A DNA stretch of 31,955 bases from a virus, in the UHGV virus genome UHGV-0175171, one strand, 5' to 3'. The position numbers and the translations under genes are program-made. This document shows positions 1 through 31,653 of this stretch, in pieces (position 1 is the first letter of the stretch; the number at the start of each line of letters is the position of its first letter). Under the pieces are notes generated by a model. The model was not told the DNA's origin and did not search any database. It saw nothing but the letters and a program-made list of their open reading frames with translations.

Positions 1-1
1 G

Positions 2-1738
2 GCGGAAAACTTAAATCTGTATGTGAAAAGGATACGTTTACTTGAAACAATGGATGATCCAGAAGCTGTAATTCTGTGTGATCAGGGGGTATCAGCTTTT
101 AAGGGTCTGAATATATCTGAAGGTGAGCTTGGGCGATGGATGGAACAAGTACAGGCTGGTATGTGGGACGGTTCACATTTAGTACTGGAATCGATCGATA
201 GGTTCAGCCGCCAAAACCCCTTTACCCTTGTAGGTTATCTTTCACGTTTGGTTGAACATGATATCACGCTACATGATGTGTCCCTAAACCTGCTGATTAA
301 CCGTTCTAACAGTGCGATGTTACCAATCGTTACTATGTCAGCACAGCGTGCATATGAGGAATCGAAAATCAAAAGTGATCGTATACGCGATGGGTGGAGA
401 CGGAAGAGGGAACAGGCATTCAATAACGGTACAATCGTTACTAACAAGCGTCCACAGTGGATTGATATTCGTGATGATCAATATGTATTGAATGATAAAG
501 TGCATATAGTAAAAGAAGTATTTCGCCTCGCACAGTCCGGTATTGGTACACCTACTATTGCCAAGATACTAAATGCAAAGGGTGATGACTGGCTTTTCGA
601 AAGTGGGCGGCAGTGGCGGGGTGAATCAGTACATAAGCTTTTAAAGAATAAGCGTGTGACTGGTTCAATTTTTATTAGTGAAATTATTCGTGATTATAAT
701 AGTACTTCAAATCCAGTAGACCAGAAACGATATGAAATGGACGTGTACCCAATAGTCATATCAAAGGAAGAGTTTAATTTAGTACAGCAATTACTACGCT
801 CACGACGTGCCAACACTGGACGAATTAGTACGAATAAAGATACTGATGAATTGAAGAAGTCAAATATCTTTAATAGTATCTGTAGGTGTGGGAAATGTGG
901 TGAGGCAATGTATCATAATGTTGTTAAGTCTCACCGCAACTCAAAAAAGAATGGTAAGTTCACTGAAGAGTATAGATACATTCGGTGTCTTGGGGAACGT
1001 GATAATCTATGTGACAATAAAGCACTACGTTATGAGGTAGTAGAGCAGTTTGTTCTTGAATACCTAAAAGGTATGGATTTTTCCCGTATATTAAAACCCA
1101 ATAACCACAAAAGTGAGATTGATGTACTGAGACTCAATATCGATGAAGAGAAGAAGCATATCAGGGAATACCGTCAGGGGATTGAAAAATTAAAATCAAT
1201 GGGGAAGAAGGTTCCCTTTGATGTGCTGGTAGAGCTTGAGGAATCGCAGAAGCGACTAAGTGACCTTGAAGAAAAAGAAAGTAAGTATACAGATTTAACT
1301 GTTGATACTGAGTACTTAAAATCTGTTGATCCTTCTGTACTATTTGATCAGGGTAACATTGAAGTACGTTCCAGGATTGAAAAGGAATTATCAATGCTAC
1401 TGGAGAGTATCGTACTACATAGACTTGATAAGCACTATATAATCACCCTTGAATATACACAGGTCAACATACTTAAACATGTACTTTTTATTGAGGCTGG
1501 AAAGATTCCAGTACTAATGTCTACTCTTAGTATTGAGAAGTACAATGATGAACATATCTATACTATGCCTTCTTTTTCTATAAGGTGCGGAGAGGGAGTG
1601 CCAGAAATTCATGGTGAGGCTATAAGCCTGGTAGATTACTCCCTTCTATTAAACTACATAGATGGTGTTGATGGTTCAGAGTATGTTTCGGAGTGGATGC
1701 GAACAAATCAAAATTTTATCTTTAGTAAAGAAACTTGA
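2..1738 (+). CDS. large serine recombinase (phage integrase type), 5'-partial: reading frame is open to the window edge
   Basis: ORF 23..1738 has no stop upstream in frame (frame opens at nt 2). Resolvase-type motif ESIDRFSRQ, a recombinase domain, a Cys-rich zinc ribbon (CRCGKCGEAMYH...IRCLGERDNLCDN) and a C-terminal coiled-coil region, the layout of large serine recombinases. The catalytic-Ser N-terminus is expected upstream of the window. Confidence 0.85.
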   Translation, partial: AENLNLYVKRIRLLETMDDPEAVILCDQGVSAFKGLNISEGELGRWMEQVQAGMWDGSHLVLESIDRFSRQNPFTLVGYLSRLVEHDITLHDVSLNLLINRSNSAMLPIVTMSAQRAYEESKIKSDRIRDGWRRKREQAFNNGTIVTNKRPQWIDIRDDQYVLNDKVHIVKEVFRLAQSGIGTPTIAKILNAKGDDWLFESGRQWRGESVHKLLKNKRVTGSIFISEIIRDYNSTSNPVDQKRYEMDVYPIVISKEEFNLVQQLLRSRRANTGRISTNKDTDELKKSNIFNSICRCGKCGEAMYHNVVKSHRNSKKNGKFTEEYRYIRCLGERDNLCDNKALRYEVVEQFVLEYLKGMDFSRILKPNNHKSEIDVLRLNIDEEKKHIREYRQGIEKLKSMGKKVPFDVLVELEESQKRLSDLEEKESKYTDLTVDTEYLKSVDPSVLFDQGNIEVRSRIEKELSMLLESIVLHRLDKHYIITLEYTQVNILKHVLFIEAGKIPVLMSTLSIEKYNDEHIYTMPSFSIRCGEGVPEIHGEAISLVDYSLLLNYIDGVDGSEYVSEWMRTNQNFIFSKET

Positions 1739-2997: not shown

Positions 2998-3501
2998 ATG
3001 AAAAAGGTAAATGACCTAAAAGGAAAAAACAAAAATCTACCACTCGCAAAAAAAGCACTGAAACGTTGGAATACGATTCACAACCGCGTAGCGAGCAACA
3101 AAAACTATACTAACGTCACTATTTGTGATGAGTGGTACACATTCAGCGAATTCTACGAATGGTTCAAAGAGAACTATGTTGAAGATTGGGACATTGATAA
3201 AGATATTTGTGGTTCAAAAGAATATAGTCCTAAGACAAGTATTTTCGTACCACACTTCATCAATCTGATGTTCAGGGATGTGAATAATATTCACGGGAAA
3301 GGTGTTTCAATAACCAGAAATGGGAAATACCAAGCACAAGCAAAATGGAATGGTATTCCCCAAAAATTCGGGACGTTCAACAGTTGCCAGGAAGCTACAG
3401 CAGCATATGAGGCAGAGCGTAAACAGTATCTTTATCAACTATCCGTAGACTATGGTTCATATACAGAGCTAAGTAATCTACTCCGAAAACACTCAAAGTA
3501 A
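2998..3501 (+). CDS. AP2-domain DNA-binding protein (phage HNH-associated AP2 type)
   Basis: C-terminal GVSITRNGKYQAQAKWNGIPQKFGTFNSCQEATAAYEAERKQYL matches the AP2 pattern (GV..-.-G.W.A.I..NG....LG.F...EEAA.AY). N-terminal W-x-R-x-N-x-Y...C-DEW...F-x-W segment is typical of phage AP2 proteins. Confidence 0.6.
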   Translation: MKKVNDLKGKNKNLPLAKKALKRWNTIHNRVASNKNYTNVTICDEWYTFSEFYEWFKENYVEDWDIDKDICGSKEYSPKTSIFVPHFINLMFRDVNNIHGKGVSITRNGKYQAQAKWNGIPQKFGTFNSCQEATAAYEAERKQYLYQLSVDYGSYTELSNLLRKHSK

Positions 3502-3508
3502 TAAAAAA

Positions 3509-3533
3509 GGGCATACATTGTGAGTGTATGCCC
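3509..3533. other. 9-bp perfect hairpin (gggcataca / tgtatgccc) between the AP2 gene and the next gene
   Basis: Inverted repeat with a 7-nt loop. An A6 run lies upstream; there is no T-run downstream, so it would only terminate in the minus direction or act as a processing or regulatory stem. Confidence 0.35.
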
Positions 3534-3567
3534 AATTAACAAAATACATTTTACAAGGATATTTATC

Positions 3568-4044
3568 ATGGCAAGAACACCAACAAAAACAGACAATACA
3601 CCATTTATCAAAATCGCTGGAAACTTTAAAAAGTACAGTGATCTTACACAGGAAGGAAAAAACATAGTACTGGATATTATCAGTGAAAGTGCTGGTGAAA
3701 AGAAATATCCAGCAAAGAAAGCATACTATGTTCTATTCAATTGCACTGAAATTAGTAAGGAAACGGTTAAGTACTGGTTACAGCGTTACTATGCAGAAAA
3801 CTCCAATGAGTCAGCACCAACTGACAGTACTGTGCGTAAGTTTCTAACCATAACAAAAAAACTATCTGTTGCCTTAGTAGATGCCCACAGTAGAGGTGTG
3901 AAGCTTTTCAAGGTGGCTAAAGATGGCATGTGTTACTTATCACCAGTACAGAAGTATACAATCGATAAGATGTATAACAATGGTGCATCGGCAGAGGAAT
4001 TGATTATTGAACTACAGAAAATCATAGATAATAATGCGAACTAA
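3568..4044 (+). CDS. hypothetical protein (158 aa), possible DNA-binding protein
   Basis: Internal ATG of ORF 3520..4044 with an AAGGA RBS; the track start at 3520 is a GTG inside the hairpin. The 3' end overlaps the first copy of the TTCGCATAAT-type repeats. No confident domain call. Confidence 0.5.
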   Translation: MARTPTKTDNTPFIKIAGNFKKYSDLTQEGKNIVLDIISESAGEKKYPAKKAYYVLFNCTEISKETVKYWLQRYYAENSNESAPTDSTVRKFLTITKKLSVALVDAHSRGVKLFKVAKDGMCYLSPVQKYTIDKMYNNGASAEELIIELQKIIDNNAN

Positions 4045-4159
4045 ATGGTTCGCATAATACCCGTTTAGTTCGCATAATAGGGCATAATGCGACTTTTGCG
4101 ATCCTCTGTAACCCTTGGTATGACTGGGTTTGTCAATTATGCGAACCATTATGCGACCT
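4031..4159. repeat. cluster of at least five copies of a ~10-bp motif TTCGCATAAT / ATTATGCGAA in both orientations (iteron- or operator-like)
   Basis: Copies at ~4031-4041 (degenerate), 4048-4059, 4067-4078, 4136-4148 and 4148-4159, plus the related GCATAATGCGAC at 4082-4093; followed by a very AT-rich segment (4160-4225). Confidence 0.6.
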
Positions 4160-4695
4160 TATTATAATTATATTTTTCTATTTGATATTTTAAGTATATG
4201 TAATCGCCATATTATCATATGAAGTGATAATGCTCGTAAACTCGCATCATCACTTAAAATAAAAATAAGGGATAAACTTGCGTTTTTTGCAGTCCCTTAC
4301 GGAACTACAAAAGCACGCCCGGTTTCCTGACTCGCTGTAGCTCAGACAACAAAAGTGATTTGGGTAGTACAGTACTGACTTAAAGTGTTTGGGGTCGGAC
4401 TGACGTCCTAAAGTATTAGTGAGTTCTACGCGTCGCATAGCTCCTTGTCTGGGTCGTTCGCTGTTAAAGCTCACTAAGGTACTCAGGGACTTCAGTACTG
4501 ACATACTATCAATTAAGTACTCCCATGTACTCAAACCCAATGTAATTAATACAGTGTGACGCCGCGAAGACGGAGGAACACGCCACCCGCCGAAAGGCAT
4601 ACTATGAGGAAATGAAAGTGAGTAGGGGAACAGTGTAAACCAATCAGACAAGGAAATAAACTGACCTTTTGCACCTAGATATTACTAATAGAACT

Positions 4696-4731
4696 TTATT
4701 CAAAACACCAGATGCAATTAAAAATCTGGTG
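4696..4731 (-). terminator. intrinsic terminator of the minus-strand cassette
   Basis: Stem caccagat/atctggtg (8 bp, 10-nt loop) followed on the minus strand by TTTTG, immediately downstream of the stop of gene 4747..5343. Confidence 0.55.
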
Positions 4732-4746
4732 CTTGAGGTCTCATGC

Positions 4747-5343
4747 TTATTTGGGAAAGGTAAAAATTTCTTCAATATTCATCTTTAATGATTTTGAGTC
4801 GAGGATTATTTTATCTTTGAGGTCATTGAGACTGGAAATCATCAACTCAGGTCTATCATCAGAGACTACTGATCTAAAAACAATAATACCAAAGGCTTCA
4901 TTATAGTATTCCGTTAATCTGTAAAATGACTCTTTTAATTCTTTTGGATATGTTATTTTCCAACGTGCACATGATGATAGTTTTGATGATAATTCAAACG
5001 TTTCATATATCTGTTTAGATATTTGTGAGGACAAATTCTCAAATTTTGATTCTGACGAACGAACAGTAATGATATCAAAATGCAATTCTTGTATCTTTAA
5101 TACCTGTTGGTCATATTCAGCCATAACAGCGGTTACATGATTAAACCCTGCTTCATTGTTCTTTGTCTGTAGCCAATGAGGGGCTGCTTTGAATGCTTTA
5201 TAAGCAACCCAAGCAGTAAAGGCCGTACTGGATGCACTAATCCAATCCGTGAAACTCCCCCATTCAACATCATTGAAAATATATTTTATCAAAGAGGCAC
5301 CTAAAAGTAGAAAAAGTATTATTTTTAGGGTTGATTTATTCAT
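4747..5343 (-). CDS. membrane protein with two N-terminal TM helices and a helical cytoplasmic domain; paralog of 5355..6065
   Basis: ORF; N-terminus MNKSTLKIILFLLLGASLIKYIFNDVEWGSFTDWISASSTAFTAWVAYKAF shares the inter-helix motif (F/V)EWGSFTDWISASS with the adjacent gene. Confidence 0.6.
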   Translation of the reverse strand: MNKSTLKIILFLLLGASLIKYIFNDVEWGSFTDWISASSTAFTAWVAYKAFKAAPHWLQTKNNEAGFNHVTAVMAEYDQQVLKIQELHFDIITVRSSESKFENLSSQISKQIYETFELSSKLSSCARWKITYPKELKESFYRLTEYYNEAFGIIVFRSVVSDDRPELMISSLNDLKDKIILDSKSLKMNIEEIFTFPK

Positions 5344-5354
5344 TGTCTAATGCC

Positions 5355-6065
5355 TTAAAAATAAATGAAAAGTGTATTTAATGCACGATTATTTGAAAAA
5401 ATGTAGGTTTTGGCTTCTGATAGATGCGTTGATAATCTAATTGTATTAGGGATTAAGCTATCAAAAGTGTTATACATCTTGCGTCTTACGTGGTCAAACT
5501 CAGACATTTTTAAACCCCGCAATAAAGCTATTATATTACTAATGTGTCGAATTAATAATTCGACGGTATTTGTGACCGCAGTACATATTTTTTCAAATTC
5601 AGATGTAGGCTTGTAACGAAATAACTTCATTACATTAATGTCATTTTCTAACTGCTGAGATGTAACTTCCAACTCAGTAATGGCATCAAGTAAATATGCT
5701 TGCATTGACTCTAAAACAGAGTCTTTAAGATGGTGATCATATCCATTAACTCTATGCCTATAGTTTTTTAGTTTGAATTCAATTTTCTCAATAGTAATGA
5801 ATAGTTTTGGGTAATGCTGTGTAATAATTTGTTTTTGCAGCAAGTAAGCATCATCTCTATATTTGTCTTTTTGCCAACGAGAGTAGACATAGAATGCAAA
5901 AATCAAAGTGATAATACTGGAACTTGCACTGATCCAATCGGTGAAACTACCCCATTCAAATCCCTTACTACCAGAAAATAGAATCTTAACGAGAACTAAG
6001 ATAGCTACAAATAAAAGTAGCGAGACTAGGCCAATAAGGGTAGTGTTTGCAATTTTAATATTCAT
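5355..6065 (-). CDS. membrane protein with two N-terminal TM helices and a helical cytoplasmic domain; paralog of 4747..5343
   Basis: ORF; motif GFEWGSFTDWISASSSIITLIFAFYVY. Its start overlaps the stop of the upstream gene (ATGA at 6062-6065), suggesting translational coupling. Confidence 0.6.
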   Translation of the reverse strand: MNIKIANTTLIGLVSLLLFVAILVLVKILFSGSKGFEWGSFTDWISASSSIITLIFAFYVYSRWQKDKYRDDAYLLQKQIITQHYPKLFITIEKIEFKLKNYRHRVNGYDHHLKDSVLESMQAYLLDAITELEVTSQQLENDINVMKLFRYKPTSEFEKICTAVTNTVELLIRHISNIIALLRGLKMSEFDHVRRKMYNTFDSLIPNTIRLSTHLSEAKTYIFSNNRALNTLFIYF

Positions 6066-6613
6066 AATTTATCAGCTATGTTAATTTCACTATAGAGTAA
6101 GTCTTTCAATTTAATCAAAGCTTCCCAAATTTCAGTTGGCTTATTGCTGCAATTTCTTAGTAATATTTCATCATTTTCATATTTACTCAATGATGGATCA
6201 TAAAACCGTGTTCCTAATTCTTGAAAATCATTGATAGCATTAGTAACCGTCCAAATCGCATCATGCATTTGTGGTGTCATGTATAATGTATAATCAAGAA
6301 GGAAGTCACTTGCTTTACTTTTAATTAAATCCTGTTTATAAAGCATAATTTGATCTAAAAGATCACCATCATCATAAAAATTAAAATTTGCTGGAAGATT
6401 CAGGGAATTAATGAACTGAATGAAAGGTTTAATAATTTGCTTTTTTTCTTTCAATTCATCTTCGAGTACTTTGAATAATAGTTGCTTTTTAATCTTTTCG
6501 TTTTCAGATTTTTTAGTGATGAGTTGACTTGCCAATGTTACACCCGCAGCTATTAAAGCACCGCCTAAAGTACCGCCGACTGCAATGAGTTGTGTAATGG
6601 TTTCAGCTTCCAT
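6062..6613 (-). CDS. membrane-anchored protein (one N-terminal TM helix, helical soluble domain), unknown function
   Basis: ORF; N-terminal ITQLIAVGGTLGGALIAAGVTLASQLI hydrophobic segment followed by a KE-rich helical region. Confidence 0.55.
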   Translation of the reverse strand: MEAETITQLIAVGGTLGGALIAAGVTLASQLITKKSENEKIKKQLLFKVLEDELKEKKQIIKPFIQFINSLNLPANFNFYDDGDLLDQIMLYKQDLIKSKASDFLLDYTLYMTPQMHDAIWTVTNAINDFQELGTRFYDPSLSKYENDEILLRNCSNKPTEIWEALIKLKDLLYSEINIADKL

Positions 6614-6680
6614 GATTTTAGAAATCCAATATATAAACGTGAAAAAAGAATTTTACCATAATAACCAATTTGACGTAAAC

Positions 6681-6757
6681 TATCAGCGATATCCCCCTCC
6701 CATAAAGGGTAGGTGGTTTGTTTAGTTTGTTGGTGTGTGAGGGGGATATCGCTGATA
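6681..6757. repeat. perfect 19-bp inverted repeat (TATCAGCGATATCCCCCTC ... GAGGGGGATATCGCTGATA) with a 39-nt G/T-rich spacer
   Basis: Read directly: arms at 6681-6699 and 6739-6757. A second hairpin (gtgctgc/gcagcac, 6761-6780) follows immediately. Confidence 0.7.
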
Positions 6758-6820
6758 GAAGTGCTGCCAGTTAGCAGCACTGAGTAATGTATGGTGGGTC
6801 TGCGTTAGTACACTTAACGT

Positions 6821-6846
6821 TTGGTTATGGTTATGGTTATGGTTGA
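6821..6846. repeat. hexamer tandem repeat (GGTTAT)x3 + GGTTGA
   Basis: ttggttatggttatggttatggttga read directly, ~20 nt downstream (in coordinates below) of the stop of gene 6864..7778 on the minus strand. Confidence 0.7.
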
Positions 6847-6863
6847 GATTGACTCAATATATT

Positions 6864-7778
6864 TCAGCAGTTTCTTACGATTCTATCGTATCGTTCTACA
6901 AAAGTTATTATTTTCAACTGATCTTGATTATATGTATCAACCCATTTCTTCATAGCATCTTCTATTATGTAGAGAAAATCAACAAGGTTAAAGTAGGTCG
7001 TATCCCCAATAGTGGTTGTCTTAAATGAATTTCTTTGATGTATTGCAAAACTAATTCGTCTCACCTTCTCTTGTTTTACTTTCTGACTATCAAGATTAGA
7101 CATATGTATTAATGAATTGCGGAGTTCCCAAAGCTCATCAGAAGTAACTTCCAAAGAAGATAAATCTGCATAGGTGTTAAGCCATTTTGTAAAGTTATGG
7201 TGCTGACCAAAATCAACCCAGGCAATTGTATCAATGAATGAAAAAAGTAACTTTATGCAGCTTAAGTAATGTTTATTATTAAATAGATAGTGAATTGGTT
7301 CAAAATGATCATCCTTAAGAAGTTGAGCCATGTCAAAAGTATTACCGACATAGTATTTTGAAAGATAATCATTATGATTTGAAAATTCGTATCCTGAGAA
7401 TTTATCAATATGATGTTGACGAAGTGGTTCAAAATCTAAACGATGTTGGTTCATTATTTTACCGTTCTGGATTGGGGTAATCAAATGTAAGCAGTCATCA
7501 CCAAGATTATAAGGTGCTAAAACATCAGAGAAAATTAAAGTCAAATTGTCTGTACGCATCATTGCATTAATTTTTGCTAATGAAACTCCATTTTCTTTAT
7601 CTTTGATTTCTTGTGGAATATCACCAAAATTTGCATCTGAAAGGTCAAGGCCAACTTTAGATAAGAGGAAATGACACATTTCCTCTTCTGTTCCTGAATG
7701 CTCATACAGTACAAAAGCAACATGTGTTATTAAATCATCAGTTGCGAAGTAATATAAGTTAAGAAGTTTATGTTTCAT
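6864..7778 (-). CDS. hypothetical protein with an R-N-x3-H (HEPN-like) motif; candidate abortive-infection or RNase-type effector
   Basis: Start moved to the ATG at 7778 (GGAGGA RBS, 5-nt spacer); the track start at 7790 is a GTG. Motif ELRNSLIHM at residues ~220-225 fits the HEPN R-[N]-x3-H signature. No other domain recognised. Confidence 0.5.
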   Translation of the reverse strand: MKHKLLNLYYFATDDLITHVAFVLYEHSGTEEEMCHFLLSKVGLDLSDANFGDIPQEIKDKENGVSLAKINAMMRTDNLTLIFSDVLAPYNLGDDCLHLITPIQNGKIMNQHRLDFEPLRQHHIDKFSGYEFSNHNDYLSKYYVGNTFDMAQLLKDDHFEPIHYLFNNKHYLSCIKLLFSFIDTIAWVDFGQHHNFTKWLNTYADLSSLEVTSDELWELRNSLIHMSNLDSQKVKQEKVRRISFAIHQRNSFKTTTIGDTTYFNLVDFLYIIEDAMKKWVDTYNQDQLKIITFVERYDRIVRNC

Positions 7779-7790
7779 AAGTTCCTCCAC

Positions 7791-14781
<6,991 letters not shown>

Positions 14782-29223: not shown

Positions 29224-29259
29224 AAATACCTCATAAATTATTGTTTGTGGGGTATTTAT

Positions 29260-29688
29260 ATGAAATGGACAATGCATGATCCTGAGACATGGGATTATGA
29301 AGATATAAATGACGGGAGGTATGCAGCTTTTGTATATATGATCACTTTTGACGATGGTTCATATTATTTTGGTGTAAAGTCAATCTTCAAAGGTATTCGG
29401 GATGTAAAGAAGCTGAAGCCAACTACAAAGGAATCCAACTGGGAGAATTATTATTCTTCCTCAAAGAAAGTGCAGGCAATGGTCGATTCAGGTCTGAACT
29501 ATGAAAAACAAATACTATGGTGTTTCAGTACGACGAATGAAGCCGAGCAGGTAGAAGCGGCGTTGATTCTATTCTTAGGACAGCAATCAAATAATTTGAA
29601 TCTTGCCGTGATGTGTAAAGTACGGCTTGGTAAAAATCGTTCTGAAACATTCAAAGTACTGCAACAATTATTAGAGAGGTTATCATGA
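29260..29688 (+). CDS. free-standing GIY-YIG nuclease domain protein
   Basis: AAFVYMITFDDGSYYFGVKS (GIY...YIG motifs), downstream conserved Arg and an acidic NEAEQVE segment with a terminal Asn; ~143 aa with no obvious DNA-binding extension. Confidence 0.55.
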   Translation: MKWTMHDPETWDYEDINDGRYAAFVYMITFDDGSYYFGVKSIFKGIRDVKKLKPTTKESNWENYYSSSKKVQAMVDSGLNYEKQILWCFSTTNEAEQVEAALILFLGQQSNNLNLAVMCKVRLGKNRSETFKVLQQLLERLS

Positions 29689-30609: not shown

Positions 30610-30900
30610 ATGATAAATGCAATCTCCGTATTAATTAGTACGATAATGAGTCTTTTTACAAAGACAAAAATAATTGAAAAAGAGGAACATAAAACTAACA
30701 CTGATGGACAGATTGAGACAAATAAAATTGAAATTGAGCAAAACACCTTTCACTGGAGAAACTTCCTTGGTTTTGTACTTTCCCTAATCATTTTATATAA
30801 TTGGATAATTGTTCCTGTTCTTGATGCGTTTGGTATTGTATTAATACAAATTCCACTAGGTGAGCTACTACAGATACTTTTAATCATGGTGGGTGGTTGA
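30610..30900 (+). CDS. small membrane protein (2-3 TM helices), holin-like
   Basis: 96-aa ORF with an AAGGAAA RBS; hydrophobic N-terminus and two C-terminal hydrophobic helices; in the neighbourhood of the endolysin. Confidence 0.4.
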   Translation: MINAISVLISTIMSLFTKTKIIEKEEHKTNTDGQIETNKIEIEQNTFHWRNFLGFVLSLIILYNWIIVPVLDAFGIVLIQIPLGELLQILLIMVGG

Positions 30901-31584
30901 CTTAGTAATTACAAATAATGACCTCCAGGTGTTCATCCAAGATGTAGATAGAATCTGTGTTAAGGCATAGCATTGATTGAAGCTAATTTGATTGAACTCA
31001 TATGATTTTTTACGAGCCATGCCATTAACATCTTTATATGAAAAGATCATCATTTGGCTAAGCTCTGAAAATTTATATAAAGTACTAATGTACTGGGTTA
31101 TGCCATCTCGTTGATCTGGTCTTATTTCGATTTCCCAAACTTTTAATATGTCTTTTTGTGAAGAAAGCACAGATAAATGAGTTTTAAAATCTAACCATAA
31201 TGTCTCAATTTCATTATTGAGTTTTTCATAATGTGGGTCTGTTTTTCCCAAATTTTTGGTGCCTAAATAGCAATACATATTCATTATGTGCTCAAATACT
31301 TTTTCTGACTTTAATTTAGCATCGGATAAATGAACAATAAAATTATTTGCTTGTTCGAATCCTTTCGTATGTGTCTTTTCATTGTACCAATTTTTGACTT
31401 TATATAGTGTATAAGTAGCAATGCTTGCCAATACTGTATCCATAATGGCAGATACAGTAGAACTATTAAATTCATGAAAACCTAAGACATCTATATATAT
31501 CGGGATCAGTATTCCGACTGCTAAACAAGCTATATGAGAAAATTTAATTTGTTTAACTAATTTTTTAAAATGATGTTTTTTCAT
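30880..31584 (-). CDS. membrane protein with two N-terminal TM helices; third member of the 2-TM family seen at 4747..6065
   Basis: Inter-helix segment GFHEFNSSTVSAIMDTVLASIATYTLY resembles GFEWGSFTDWISASSSIITLIFAFYVY of 5355..6065. Start uncertain (ATG at 31584 preferred over the TTG at 31626; no clear RBS). Confidence 0.5.
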   Translation of the reverse strand: MKKHHFKKLVKQIKFSHIACLAVGILIPIYIDVLGFHEFNSSTVSAIMDTVLASIATYTLYKVKNWYNEKTHTKGFEQANNFIVHLSDAKLKSEKVFEHIMNMYCYLGTKNLGKTDPHYEKLNNEIETLWLDFKTHLSVLSSQKDILKVWEIEIRPDQRDGITQYISTLYKFSELSQMMIFSYKDVNGMARKKSYEFNQISFNQCYALTQILSTSWMNTWRSLFVITKSTTHHD

Positions 31585-31653
31585 ATAAGAGATTTTAATC
31601 ACCGATGAATAGATTGTCGAATTCAAGAGTTCTCAGATAATCTTATGATCTAC

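Follow-up and report, generated by a model that had tools for sequence, protein, structure and literature searches.

In an E. coli prophage, the gene for a 158-residue protein (p158; 3568–4044, plus strand) and an array of short repeats lying across and beyond its 3′ end (4031–4157) appear, by strong inference from sequence comparison, to form one conserved cassette in which the sites co-evolve with the protein. The repeats are very probably binding sites of p158. A multi-site operator with an AT palindrome at a point of sense and antisense transcription is the reading tentatively favored for the array; it falls short of being probable, and is placed slightly ahead of an iteron-type replication origin. 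The two functions may hold together. The window analyzed here, the whole stretch of 31,955 nt (UHGV-0175171), represents a prophage of ~31 kb that is inserted in ybhA and carries a large serine recombinase. A frameshift in its terL (9141–9152) may leave this copy defective. Prophages of this kind, ~30 kb long and found in E. coli, Klebsiella, Enterobacter and Serratia, have a fully recognizable virion module and an early region without any known protein family; a family scan of the early proteins next to p158 gave nothing usable. The cassette is the largest conserved non-structural feature found, which makes it an obvious entry point to replication and lysogeny.

The array comprises six copies and one partial copy of G(T)TCGCATWAT in both orientations. 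Allowing at most one mismatch, a motif search places TTCGCATAAT at 4031–4040 (minus), 4049–4058 (plus), 4069–4078 (plus), 4136–4145 (minus) and 4148–4157 (minus), and only twice more in the remaining 31.8 kb (14779 and 25940). Five matches within 127 bp compare with 0.012 expected from the shuffle rate (Poisson P(≥5) ~2e-12). Every copy is preceded by G, so the repeat unit is about 11–12 nt long. Copy 0 (minus strand, TTCGCATTAT) overlaps the final codons of p158 and forms, together with the exact copy 1, an 11-nt inverted repeat around the stop codon (4042–4044). Copy 2, also exact and recovered by a repeat search, lies 20 bp from copy 1, and this direct-pair spacing of 20–21 bp is kept in relatives. 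Copy 3 (GTCGCATTAT; 4084–4093, minus, two mismatches) was read from the sequence and from repeat families, and the partial copy TTGCGA that follows it (4096–4101) from the sequence, as was the spacer (4102–4135) separating this proximal group from the distal one. The distal group consists of copy 4 (exact) and copy 5 (one mismatch), in tandem on the minus strand (4136–4157), 12 bp apart and abutting AT-rich DNA. In total the window has two exact direct copies 20 bp apart and four inverted copies; in some relatives the direct copies number three. An exact IHF consensus, WATCAANNNNTTR, occurs in the spacer of five of 15 relatives and is absent from the window.

The first-pass annotation had described at least five motif copies in both orientations within ~130 bp, the first overlapping the 3′ end of the gene, and both statements hold, with a sixth copy added to the five; the genome-wide motif search it proposed found no similar density elsewhere. 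Its coordinates for the feature, 4031–4230, capture the array and understate the extent, which reaches left to 3509, taking in the p158 gene and a terminator at 3509–3533, and right through conserved structured non-coding DNA to ~4700.

The gene and the array are kept together in ~35 related loci, except for the disrupted L005 and L033. Among 22 relatives scanned de novo, three distant clades and the lytic jumbo phage RaK2, whose p158 homolog is 27% identical, the same layout recurs: one site at the stop codon or immediately ahead of it, a pair or trio of direct copies spaced by ~20 bp, then a spacer, and finally a distal copy that abuts TATA-rich DNA. The motif itself differs. Compared with TTCGCATAAT in the window, it is CTTCGCAAGATGG in the main clade, GTTCTCGTTTT in L001, TCCATTAATGGA in L010 and L035, AATTAGCGTAAC in L038, TTCCGATAAT in L039, AATTAGGGCAAC in L041 and AATTAGGGACAC in RaK2; the p158 proteins of the last two are each other's closer relatives. 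Every clade has a copy of its own motif at the stop codon, and the C-terminal codons of p158 alter along with it. That the repeat varies by protein clade argues strongly for binding of the array by p158. The cassette has also moved between very different phages. A megablast search of 3000–7000 against phage records returned no close DNA relative, scans of a genome contig collection gave no matches, and a 25-nt conserved word matched one viral contig, which was already known.

The clade pattern also bears on the view that the repeats make up the arms of stem-loops in RNA or DNA, serving as terminators or processing structures where transcription converges (for example 4044–4058 with 4136–4150), in which case covariation between clades would merely preserve pairing. 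Copies 1 and 4 are complementary over 15 nt (100%), the hairpin of copies 0 and 1 encloses the stop codon and is flagged as terminator-like on the minus strand, and converging genes flank the array in both the window and RaK2. However, in every clade the direct copies are near-identical and at least as numerous as the inverted ones, neither of which is needed for pairing alone. The stop-codon and distal copies of L038 have the same orientation and cannot pair, each site of L010 and L035 is itself a 12-bp palindrome, and the array is always found together with p158. Stem-loops are the least probable explanation considered, and a very improbable one.

With its repeats in both orientations around a bendable spacer, the array also resembles lambda cosB and P1 parS, and may be compared with these as some other nucleoprotein site: a cos/pac packaging site, a partition centromere, an accessory site for recombination or a mobile-cassette end. 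In many relatives the cassette has a gene for an HNH-type homing endonuclease beside it, and the mobility of the cassette is likewise compatible with such a site, to which little probability is given overall. A packaging site was rejected, the array being 4.2 kb from terS (8234). Between the window and the 90%-identical L009, homology is interrupted within the N-terminal portion of terS; just upstream of that gene is a conserved block of short length (8148–8175). Such a pattern would be expected of cos and its binding domain being located there. A ParB/parS-type partition site was also rejected, since neither the window nor the related loci encode a ParA-type NTPase/ATPase. As for recombination, the adjoining integrases are 24–34% identical while the p158 proteins are ~60% identical; with integrases so much more divergent than p158, a role for it as their directionality factor is unlikely and was rejected.

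The presumed binder of the repeats is an all-helical orphan, predicted to fold as a long helix joining two small helical modules. Its best fold matches, all weak, are Myb-like SANT-SLIDE DNA-binding modules; a Foldseek search of the PDB gave nothing with E below 1, and matches in BFVD are uncharacterized phage proteins only. The structure prediction suggested earlier as a check for helix-turn-helix folds thus yields helical modules of weak SANT-SLIDE likeness and no recognizable HTH family signature. Comparison with repressor families (HTH_3/CI-Cro, Cox, Arc/MetJ) gave no match, and comparison with initiator families (Rep_3, RepA_N, lambda O, DnaD-like and others) gave no similarity in sequence or fold. 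Family searches of the window found no recognizable repressor gene. The statement that no replication initiator gene is evident there also stands: Pfam, PHROGs and NCBIfam searches detected no initiator, helicase, primase or loader.

AT-rich DNA follows the repeats, as had been claimed. The stretch at 4158–4231 is 82% A+T (4158–4230) compared with 62% for the window, and its best 50-mer reaches 86%, a value within the top 0.1% for the window and higher than anywhere else in the prophage proper. By composition, a candidate unwinding element adjoins the repeats, as in iteron origins. The stretch also holds a palindrome, TATAATTATA, at 4163–4172, and consensus −10 hexamers at 4163–4168 on the plus strand and at 4172–4167 and 4166–4161 on the minus strand. 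At this offset, relatives carry TTAATATTAA or TATAAT: 1–5 bp past the distal copy, all clades have −10-like hexamers on both strands, with a near-consensus one that matches TATAAT perfectly in the window and L010. In most loci promoter-like matches occur at matching relative positions on both strands, with weak −35 matches.

On the other side of the gene, a terminator scan found an intrinsic-terminator-like hairpin (9 bp, five G-C) followed by T6 on the minus strand at 3509–3533, 35 nt upstream of the p158 start. A minus-strand hairpin and T-run within 150 nt upstream of the start is present in 13 of 20 relatives (plus strand, two of 20), and the stems are unrelated in sequence between clades. 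A minus-strand terminator just upstream of p158 implies an antisense transcript, and its recurrence implies that a minus-strand transcript crossing p158 is conserved. These predicted terminators would give the cassette the opposing transcription units of a phage switch. No positionally conserved minus-strand promoter was found inside p158.

The fixed offset of the −10-like hexamers and the conserved minus-strand terminator are what make us lean to the operator. In this mechanism, the AT palindrome would provide back-to-back, overlapping −10 elements. Transcription from the rightward promoter would enter the structured non-coding DNA and, in most relatives, continue to the early genes; the leftward promoter would direct transcription through the array and antisense over p158, ending at the terminator at 3509–3533. 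Bound to the distal copies (4136–4157), p158 would occlude both promoters, these copies covering, for the rightward promoter, its spacer and −35 zone and, for the leftward promoter, its start site. The proximal copies (4031–4093), with their 20-bp phasing, may add cooperativity through looping over the spacer. If antisense RNA lowers p158 and p158 blocks antisense RNA, the circuit would be self-reinforcing and would act as a switch. The same nucleoprotein complex may serve replication too.

Several features sit uneasily with an operator. The sites are mostly non-palindromic, number five to seven, extend over 130–170 bp and include one inside the 3′ end of the gene, an arrangement more like iterons. 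The protein has no recognizable HTH family signature, and the cassette also occurs in a lytic jumbo phage, for which a lysogeny switch would serve no purpose. The promoters are predictions, with weak −35 matches, and hexamers of this kind are common by chance in AT-rich DNA (seven in 3400–5000 against 5.4 expected). In addition, the G-U pattern of two hairpins downstream mildly favors a minus-strand RNA that starts to the right of the AT palindrome.

These hairpins open a long stretch of conserved structured DNA. The first, H1 (4222–4255, minus strand), has a 12-bp stem and a conserved loop (TCGTAAACTC on the plus strand), and is defined by covariation: counted pair by pair on a hand-trimmed alignment, eight of 12 pairs are changed on both sides, and none of 500 shuffles attains the observed covariation score. 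On the minus strand 93.8% of its cells are paired, compared with 86.3% on the plus strand. The second, H2 (4280–4318, minus strand), identified from alignments and folding, has a conserved GCGTT...AACGC base and a variable top, which in the window forms 12 contiguous pairs, including two G-U pairs, on the minus strand only. Alignments further show a conserved block, ACTCGCTGTAGCTCAGACAAC, at 4330–4350, whose CTCGC...GCTC motif recurs in the H1 loops of relatives. An nhmmer profile of H1–H2 reaches L039 and L040 (E 1e-4) and has no match in RaK2, L010, L038 or L041; the likeness of RaK2 in this part is an alignment by eye only. A larger non-coding block (4381–4669) is 71% identical to prophages of E. 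albertii and E. coli N61, although their p158 is just 43% identical, and its folding beats shuffles on both strands (z −3.6 and −2.9). The consensus of 4375–4700 folds alike on both strands (−28.9 vs −33.0 kcal/mol, from three effective sequences). Rfam gave no gathering-score match in the whole window and chance-level hits only in 3900–4900, and no tRNA or tmRNA was found. A 133-aa ORF at 4250–4651 (minus) was rejected as a gene; it is unannotated and not kept in an 87%-identical relative. The right edge of the region, read from the sequence, is a minus-strand hairpin with a T-run (4706–4731) that ends a cargo operon (7790–4747, minus). In most relatives the genes beyond the region are on the plus strand, as far as terS and terL.

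The same architecture can be read as an iteron-type origin, a possibility we regard with more doubt than the operator. Here p158 would be a new kind of origin-binding initiator that loads on the phased repeats and melts the AT-rich element; H1 and H2 would either serve single-strand initiation as priming signals or belong to a primer RNA, and the antisense transcript would set the level of the initiator, as counter-transcripts do in plasmids. Two helical turns (20–21 bp) separate the direct copies, other copies occur in both orientations, the array adjoins the DNA richest in A+T in the prophage, which has covarying hairpins next to it, and an exact IHF consensus stands in the spacer of a third of the relatives compared. 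Lambda O and SaPI rep/ori are familiar cases of an origin inside or beside the gene for the initiator, and one site here lies within the gene itself. Neither the ~31-kb phage nor its relatives contain another replication gene or origin candidate. Short islands without virion genes still keep the int–p158–array–non-coding module, and in the lytic jumbo phage an origin makes sense where a lysogeny switch does not. Prophage origins that depend on non-coding RNA also have precedent (PMC7157519).

Against an origin, p158 is unlike any initiator family, helicase and primase fusions are absent throughout its family, and among 72,556 plasmids there is not a single homolog. No conserved DnaA box (TTWTNCACA, at most one mismatch) was found near the array in 15 loci. 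The direct repeats lie 80–100 bp from the AT-rich element, the copies touching it being inverted, and that element is kept as a specific short palindrome starting with a −10-like hexamer instead of a long low-melting run. The original suggestion of an origin or an operator fares accordingly: the pairing of p158 with the array, which both readings share, gains strong support from their joint travel, the clade-tracking motif and the stop-codon copy, while the origin itself was not confirmed. In its fullest form, the origin proposal would make the cassette (p158, array, AT palindrome and covarying hairpins with CTCG-rich loops) an undescribed, horizontally mobile phage replicon, with p158 as an origin binder of new fold acting with strand-specific single-strand or RNA priming signals, the sole replication function of ~30-kb Enterobacteriaceae serine-integrase prophages, captured by RaK2-like jumbo phages. 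This we consider rather unlikely.

Among known systems, the SANT-SLIDE modules of ISWI and Chd1 share a weak fold-level likeness with p158 (7–10% identity), with no sign of common descent or function. T4 oriF and oriG each combine a promoter with an unwinding element. Together with ColE1 RNA II/RNA I and the non-RepA origins of mycobacteriophage prophages (PMC7157519), they belong to RNA-dependent origins, in which, as here, several hundred bases of conserved and structured non-coding sequence come after an element resembling a promoter; a phage without a recognizable initiator and an inferred antisense transcript are further points in common. In contrast to these, the cassette includes a dedicated, presumed DNA-binding protein with its site array, and neither sequence nor Rfam comparison shows similarity to RNA I or RNA II.

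Iteron origins such as lambda ori in gene O, the SaPI ori just 3′ of rep, and P1 oriR and incA flanking repA also consist of short repeats for the product of an adjacent gene (binding here being presumed), with direct copies about two helical turns apart, an adjoining AT-rich element, and repeat and protein co-varying between relatives. However, p158 is unlike O, Rep_3, RepA_N and the SaPI Rep helicases, the cassette has neither a helicase loader nor DnaA boxes, there are only two or three direct copies, and those at the AT-rich DNA are inverted; its role in replication is that of a candidate. Should the array prove to be an origin, it would establish both a new family of initiators and a compact replicon, possibly useful as a tool.

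Phage switches with several repressor sites and convergent or overlapping promoters, for instance coliphage 186 pR/pL with CI and Apl, the C and Cox boxes of P2, and Mu c with O1–O3 and an IHF site, likewise place several short sites around promoter elements, with a possible bendable spacer and opposing transcripts that suggest a self-reinforcing circuit. The p158 gene differs in pointing toward its own sites, one of them within its own 3′ end, and its product lacks HTH_3, Cro/CI and Cox signatures; the promoters here are predicted. If the array is a switch, it would be built from an orphan DNA-binding fold and antisense transcription. Under either reading, the clade-specific pairs of protein and site would constitute a natural set of orthogonal DNA-binding specificities.

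Five copies of the motif TTCGCATAAT, at no more than one mismatch, occur between 4031 and 4157, and a motif search found only two matches in the rest of the window (31.8 kb). A shuffle-derived rate predicts 0.012 matches by chance in 127 bp, giving five a P of ~2e-12. The first copy (4031, minus strand) overlaps the final codons of gene 3568..4044, whose stop codon lies at 4042-4044 and whose 158-aa product is here called p158. It is followed by two exact direct repeats on the plus strand at 4049 and 4069, spaced 20 bp apart, and, from direct reading, by a sixth copy with two mismatches on the minus strand (4084-4093) and a partial copy, TTGCGA (4096-4101). Two tandem minus-strand copies (4136 and 4148), inverted relative to the direct repeats, adjoin AT-rich DNA. 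The repeat unit comes to ~11-12 nt, because a G precedes each copy. A+T content reaches 82% at 4158-4230, where the top 50-mer (86%) is the highest in the prophage proper. The first-pass annotation had described an iteron-like cluster that begins in the 3′ end of this gene and runs into AT-rich DNA, and had proposed a whole-genome motif search; layout and clustering both hold.

Homologues of p158 occur in prophages or islands of Klebsiella, Serratia, Enterobacter, Kluyvera, E. albertii and E. coli, and in metagenomes. Each of them sits between a large serine recombinase, 0.2-2.3 kb upstream, and a gene-free stretch of 400-940 nt. When the DNA around the p158 stop codon was searched de novo for its most repeated 10-mer, 22 loci showed the same array plan: one copy overlaps the stop codon (-10 to -14 relative to it), direct copies follow at ~+1 to +4 and +21 to +24, sometimes with a third, and a distal copy at +91 to +134 gives way at once to TATA-rich DNA, often (C)TTATATTAATATTAA. 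The motif itself is TTCGCATAAT in the window and L009 (p158 99-100% identical to that of the window), CTTCGCAAGATGG in the main clade (57-67%), GTTCTCGTTTT in the L001 clade (43%) and the palindromic TCCATTAATGGA in L010/L035 (43%). Three more distant clades, found by full-library profile search, behave in the same way, with AATTAGCGTAAC in L038, TTCCGATAAT in L039 and AATTAGGGCAAC in L041. The C-terminal codons of p158 also vary with clade and carry the clade's own motif, for instance GATAATAATGCGAAC-TAA in the window and GATAAAAACGAGAAC-CAA-TAG in L001. This co-change of motif and protein clade within a fixed layout argues strongly that the repeats are recognised by p158-family proteins, and the array is very probably a protein-binding locus for p158. 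That the repeats might be purely structural, serving as stem arms, is unlikely: direct copies are conserved as direct copies, and the stop-codon and distal copies of L038 share one orientation.

Pfam, PHROGs, NCBIfam and PDB sequences contain no match to p158. A confident AlphaFold2 model (pLDDT 86) predicts seven helices: four form an N-terminal module and two a C-terminal one, with a long helix connecting them. Foldseek returned no PDB match at E <1. The family is small (30 clusters among 1.84 billion representatives), and its members are stand-alone proteins of ~150-180 aa, the exceptions being some fragments and two long, repetitive proteins that match spuriously over short stretches. The lytic jumbo phage RaK2 and its relatives also encode a homologue (27% identity to p158, Foldseek E 1e-8). 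In the RaK2 locus (NC_019526 65235-66300), a 13-mer recurs five times in both orientations after ORF075; its first copy falls within the 3′ end of this gene, and the entire array lies between converging genes. A single transposition separates the RaK2 motif, AATTAGGGACAC, from that of L041, the locus with the more closely related protein (31% identity). Aligned by eye, a hairpin and a TTTGCGTTTT...CTCG segment 3′ of the array resemble those of the prophages; nhmmer did not reach the RaK2 non-coding segment. Two small annotated ORFs of RaK2, 076w and 077w, may not code for protein.

The chromosomes of E. coli FDN-24 and FDN-9 are 100% identical to the window, which is a prophage of ~31 kb splitting ybhA (pyridoxal phosphate/fructose-1,6-bisphosphate phosphatase; window 1-1738 and 30880-31626); the window starts 77 nt inside the integrase gene. 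Relatives are inserted between yggS and ruvX, beside msyB, or beside an arnT-region NlpC/P60 gene, and their serine recombinases are only 24-34% identical. From the left end, the large serine recombinase and a few small genes precede an HNH-endonuclease-like gene (2998..3501) and p158. To the right lie ~700 nt without a credible gene and then four minus-strand genes (4747..7790). Beyond them come terS, a lambda GpA-type terL, portal, a capsid-protease fusion, tail genes and lysis genes. Searches of Pfam, PHROGs and NCBIfam detected no replication or repressor family among the early genes, in line with the first-pass annotation, which saw no initiator. The interval 4747-7790, which separates the non-coding region from terS, holds variable cargo and is probably a hotspot for anti-phage defence: L009, the 90%-identical relative, has an OLD-family nuclease there (12664-14484), and L010/L035 have SMODS/SLATT genes. 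The window's own four cargo genes match no family.

Homing-endonuclease-type genes recur on either side of the p158 cassette (L041 2428-2940; L004 8964-9707) and may be homing into conserved non-coding DNA. The window's HNH-like gene has no detectable catalytic domain, genes in relatives carry HNH_3+NUMOD4 or HNH, and a SegE-like GIY-YIG gene lies near the right end (29245-29688). terL, an intact 599-aa gene in L009, is split in the window (8706..9158, 9208..10620) where the frame shifts by +1 within an A7 run (9141-9152). A frameshift mutation, programmed slippage or a sequencing error in the homopolymer could explain this; the prophage may be defective. A role of the array as cos, parS or a similar site is unlikely. 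terS lies 4.2 kb away, the homology between window and L009 breaks within the terS N-terminal region, beside a conserved block at 8148-8175, and there is no ParA gene. This block, GCGTAGTTTCAGGCACGTTTTCATTCAT, lies ~60 nt upstream of terS and is the only part of that intergenic region common to L009, homology resuming only inside terS; it is a candidate part of cos.

To the right of the AT-rich element (4158-4231) lie ~500 nt of conserved, structured non-coding sequence. Hairpin H1 (4222-4255) has a 12-bp stem and a conserved CTCG-rich loop; both sides change at 8 of its 12 pairs, and its covariation score was reached by none of 500 shuffles. It pairs better on the minus strand (93.8% vs 86.3% on the plus), because A·C mismatches on the plus strand become G·U pairs on the minus. 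Hairpin H2 (4280-4318) has a conserved GCGTT/AACGC base, and in the window its top is fully paired only on the minus strand; we lean towards the minus strand for both hairpins. One metagenomic copy, L005 (8560-9850), carries an IS3-family element inside the H1 loop and lacks 9 bp where the distal repeat meets the AT-rich DNA; since its integrase is also truncated, it is a decaying copy. Further conserved blocks span 4330-4350 and 4381-4669, the latter keeping 71% identity to prophages in which p158 identity drops to 43%, and folding better than shuffles on each strand (z -3.6 and -2.9). The region matches no Rfam family; it may be a new ncRNA or a set of single-strand DNA signals.

Transcription signals surround the array. 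In every clade a near-consensus -10 hexamer opens the AT-rich element 1-5 bp past the distal copy; in the window, the palindrome TATAATTATA (4163-4172) presents perfect TATAAT on both strands, at 4163-4168 on the plus and at 4172-4167 and 4166-4161 on the minus. Two promoter-like combinations recur in corresponding positions: the distal copy occupies the spacer and -35 zone of the rightward one, and the predicted start of the leftward one falls at the array edge. As signs of transcription these are weak evidence: matches number 7 against 5.4 expected, are common in AT-rich DNA and have poor -35 elements. Stronger evidence is a G+C-rich hairpin after an A-run that 13 of 20 loci carry 40-85 nt ahead of the p158 start codon (window 3509-3533; L003, L004, L009, L010, L013, L016, L022, L023, L025, L028, L039, L041). 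It is a Rho-independent terminator for the minus strand only, a plus-strand terminator being present in 2 of the 20, and its stem sequences are unrelated between clades. Such a terminator, where downstream genes are nearly all on the plus strand, implies a conserved leftward transcript that would start in the non-coding region and run antisense across p158.

Small DNA-binding proteins of phages are more often regulators than initiators, and for this reason an operator with an antisense switch is ranked first, tentatively, above an iteron origin. In its favour, the -10-like palindrome is conserved at a fixed offset from the distal site, the antisense terminator is conserved too, and early genes lie downstream on the plus strand in most relatives. 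The p158 locus also shows no initiator-like feature, DnaA box, domain fusion (none among the 30 clusters) or plasmid homologue (0 of 72,556). An origin, ranked second and somewhat less probable, is favoured by the number, asymmetry and 20-bp phasing of the sites, one of them inside the p158 gene's own end, and by the extreme AT content adjoining them. It gains further from the absence of any other recognisable replication function in these phages and from the module being kept in short islands and present in a lytic phage. Binding by the upstream gene product, as first proposed, is the part of the initial claim that comparison of relatives argues for, while the origin and operator readings stand close; one complex could serve both roles.

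By analogy, the locus works like an iteron/operator cassette. It belongs to none of the defined families tested and matches no initiator, repressor or Rfam family. The nearest known systems are of three kinds: origins of lambda or SaPI type, which adjoin their own initiator genes; switches with multiple sites and convergent promoters, as in 186, P2 and Mu; and RNA-dependent origins, among them the non-RepA origins of mycobacteriophage prophages (PMC7157519). The principle of the locus is familiar; new are the p158 protein family with its fixed gene-site architecture and the spread of this arrangement from serine-integrase siphoviruses to jumbo myoviruses.
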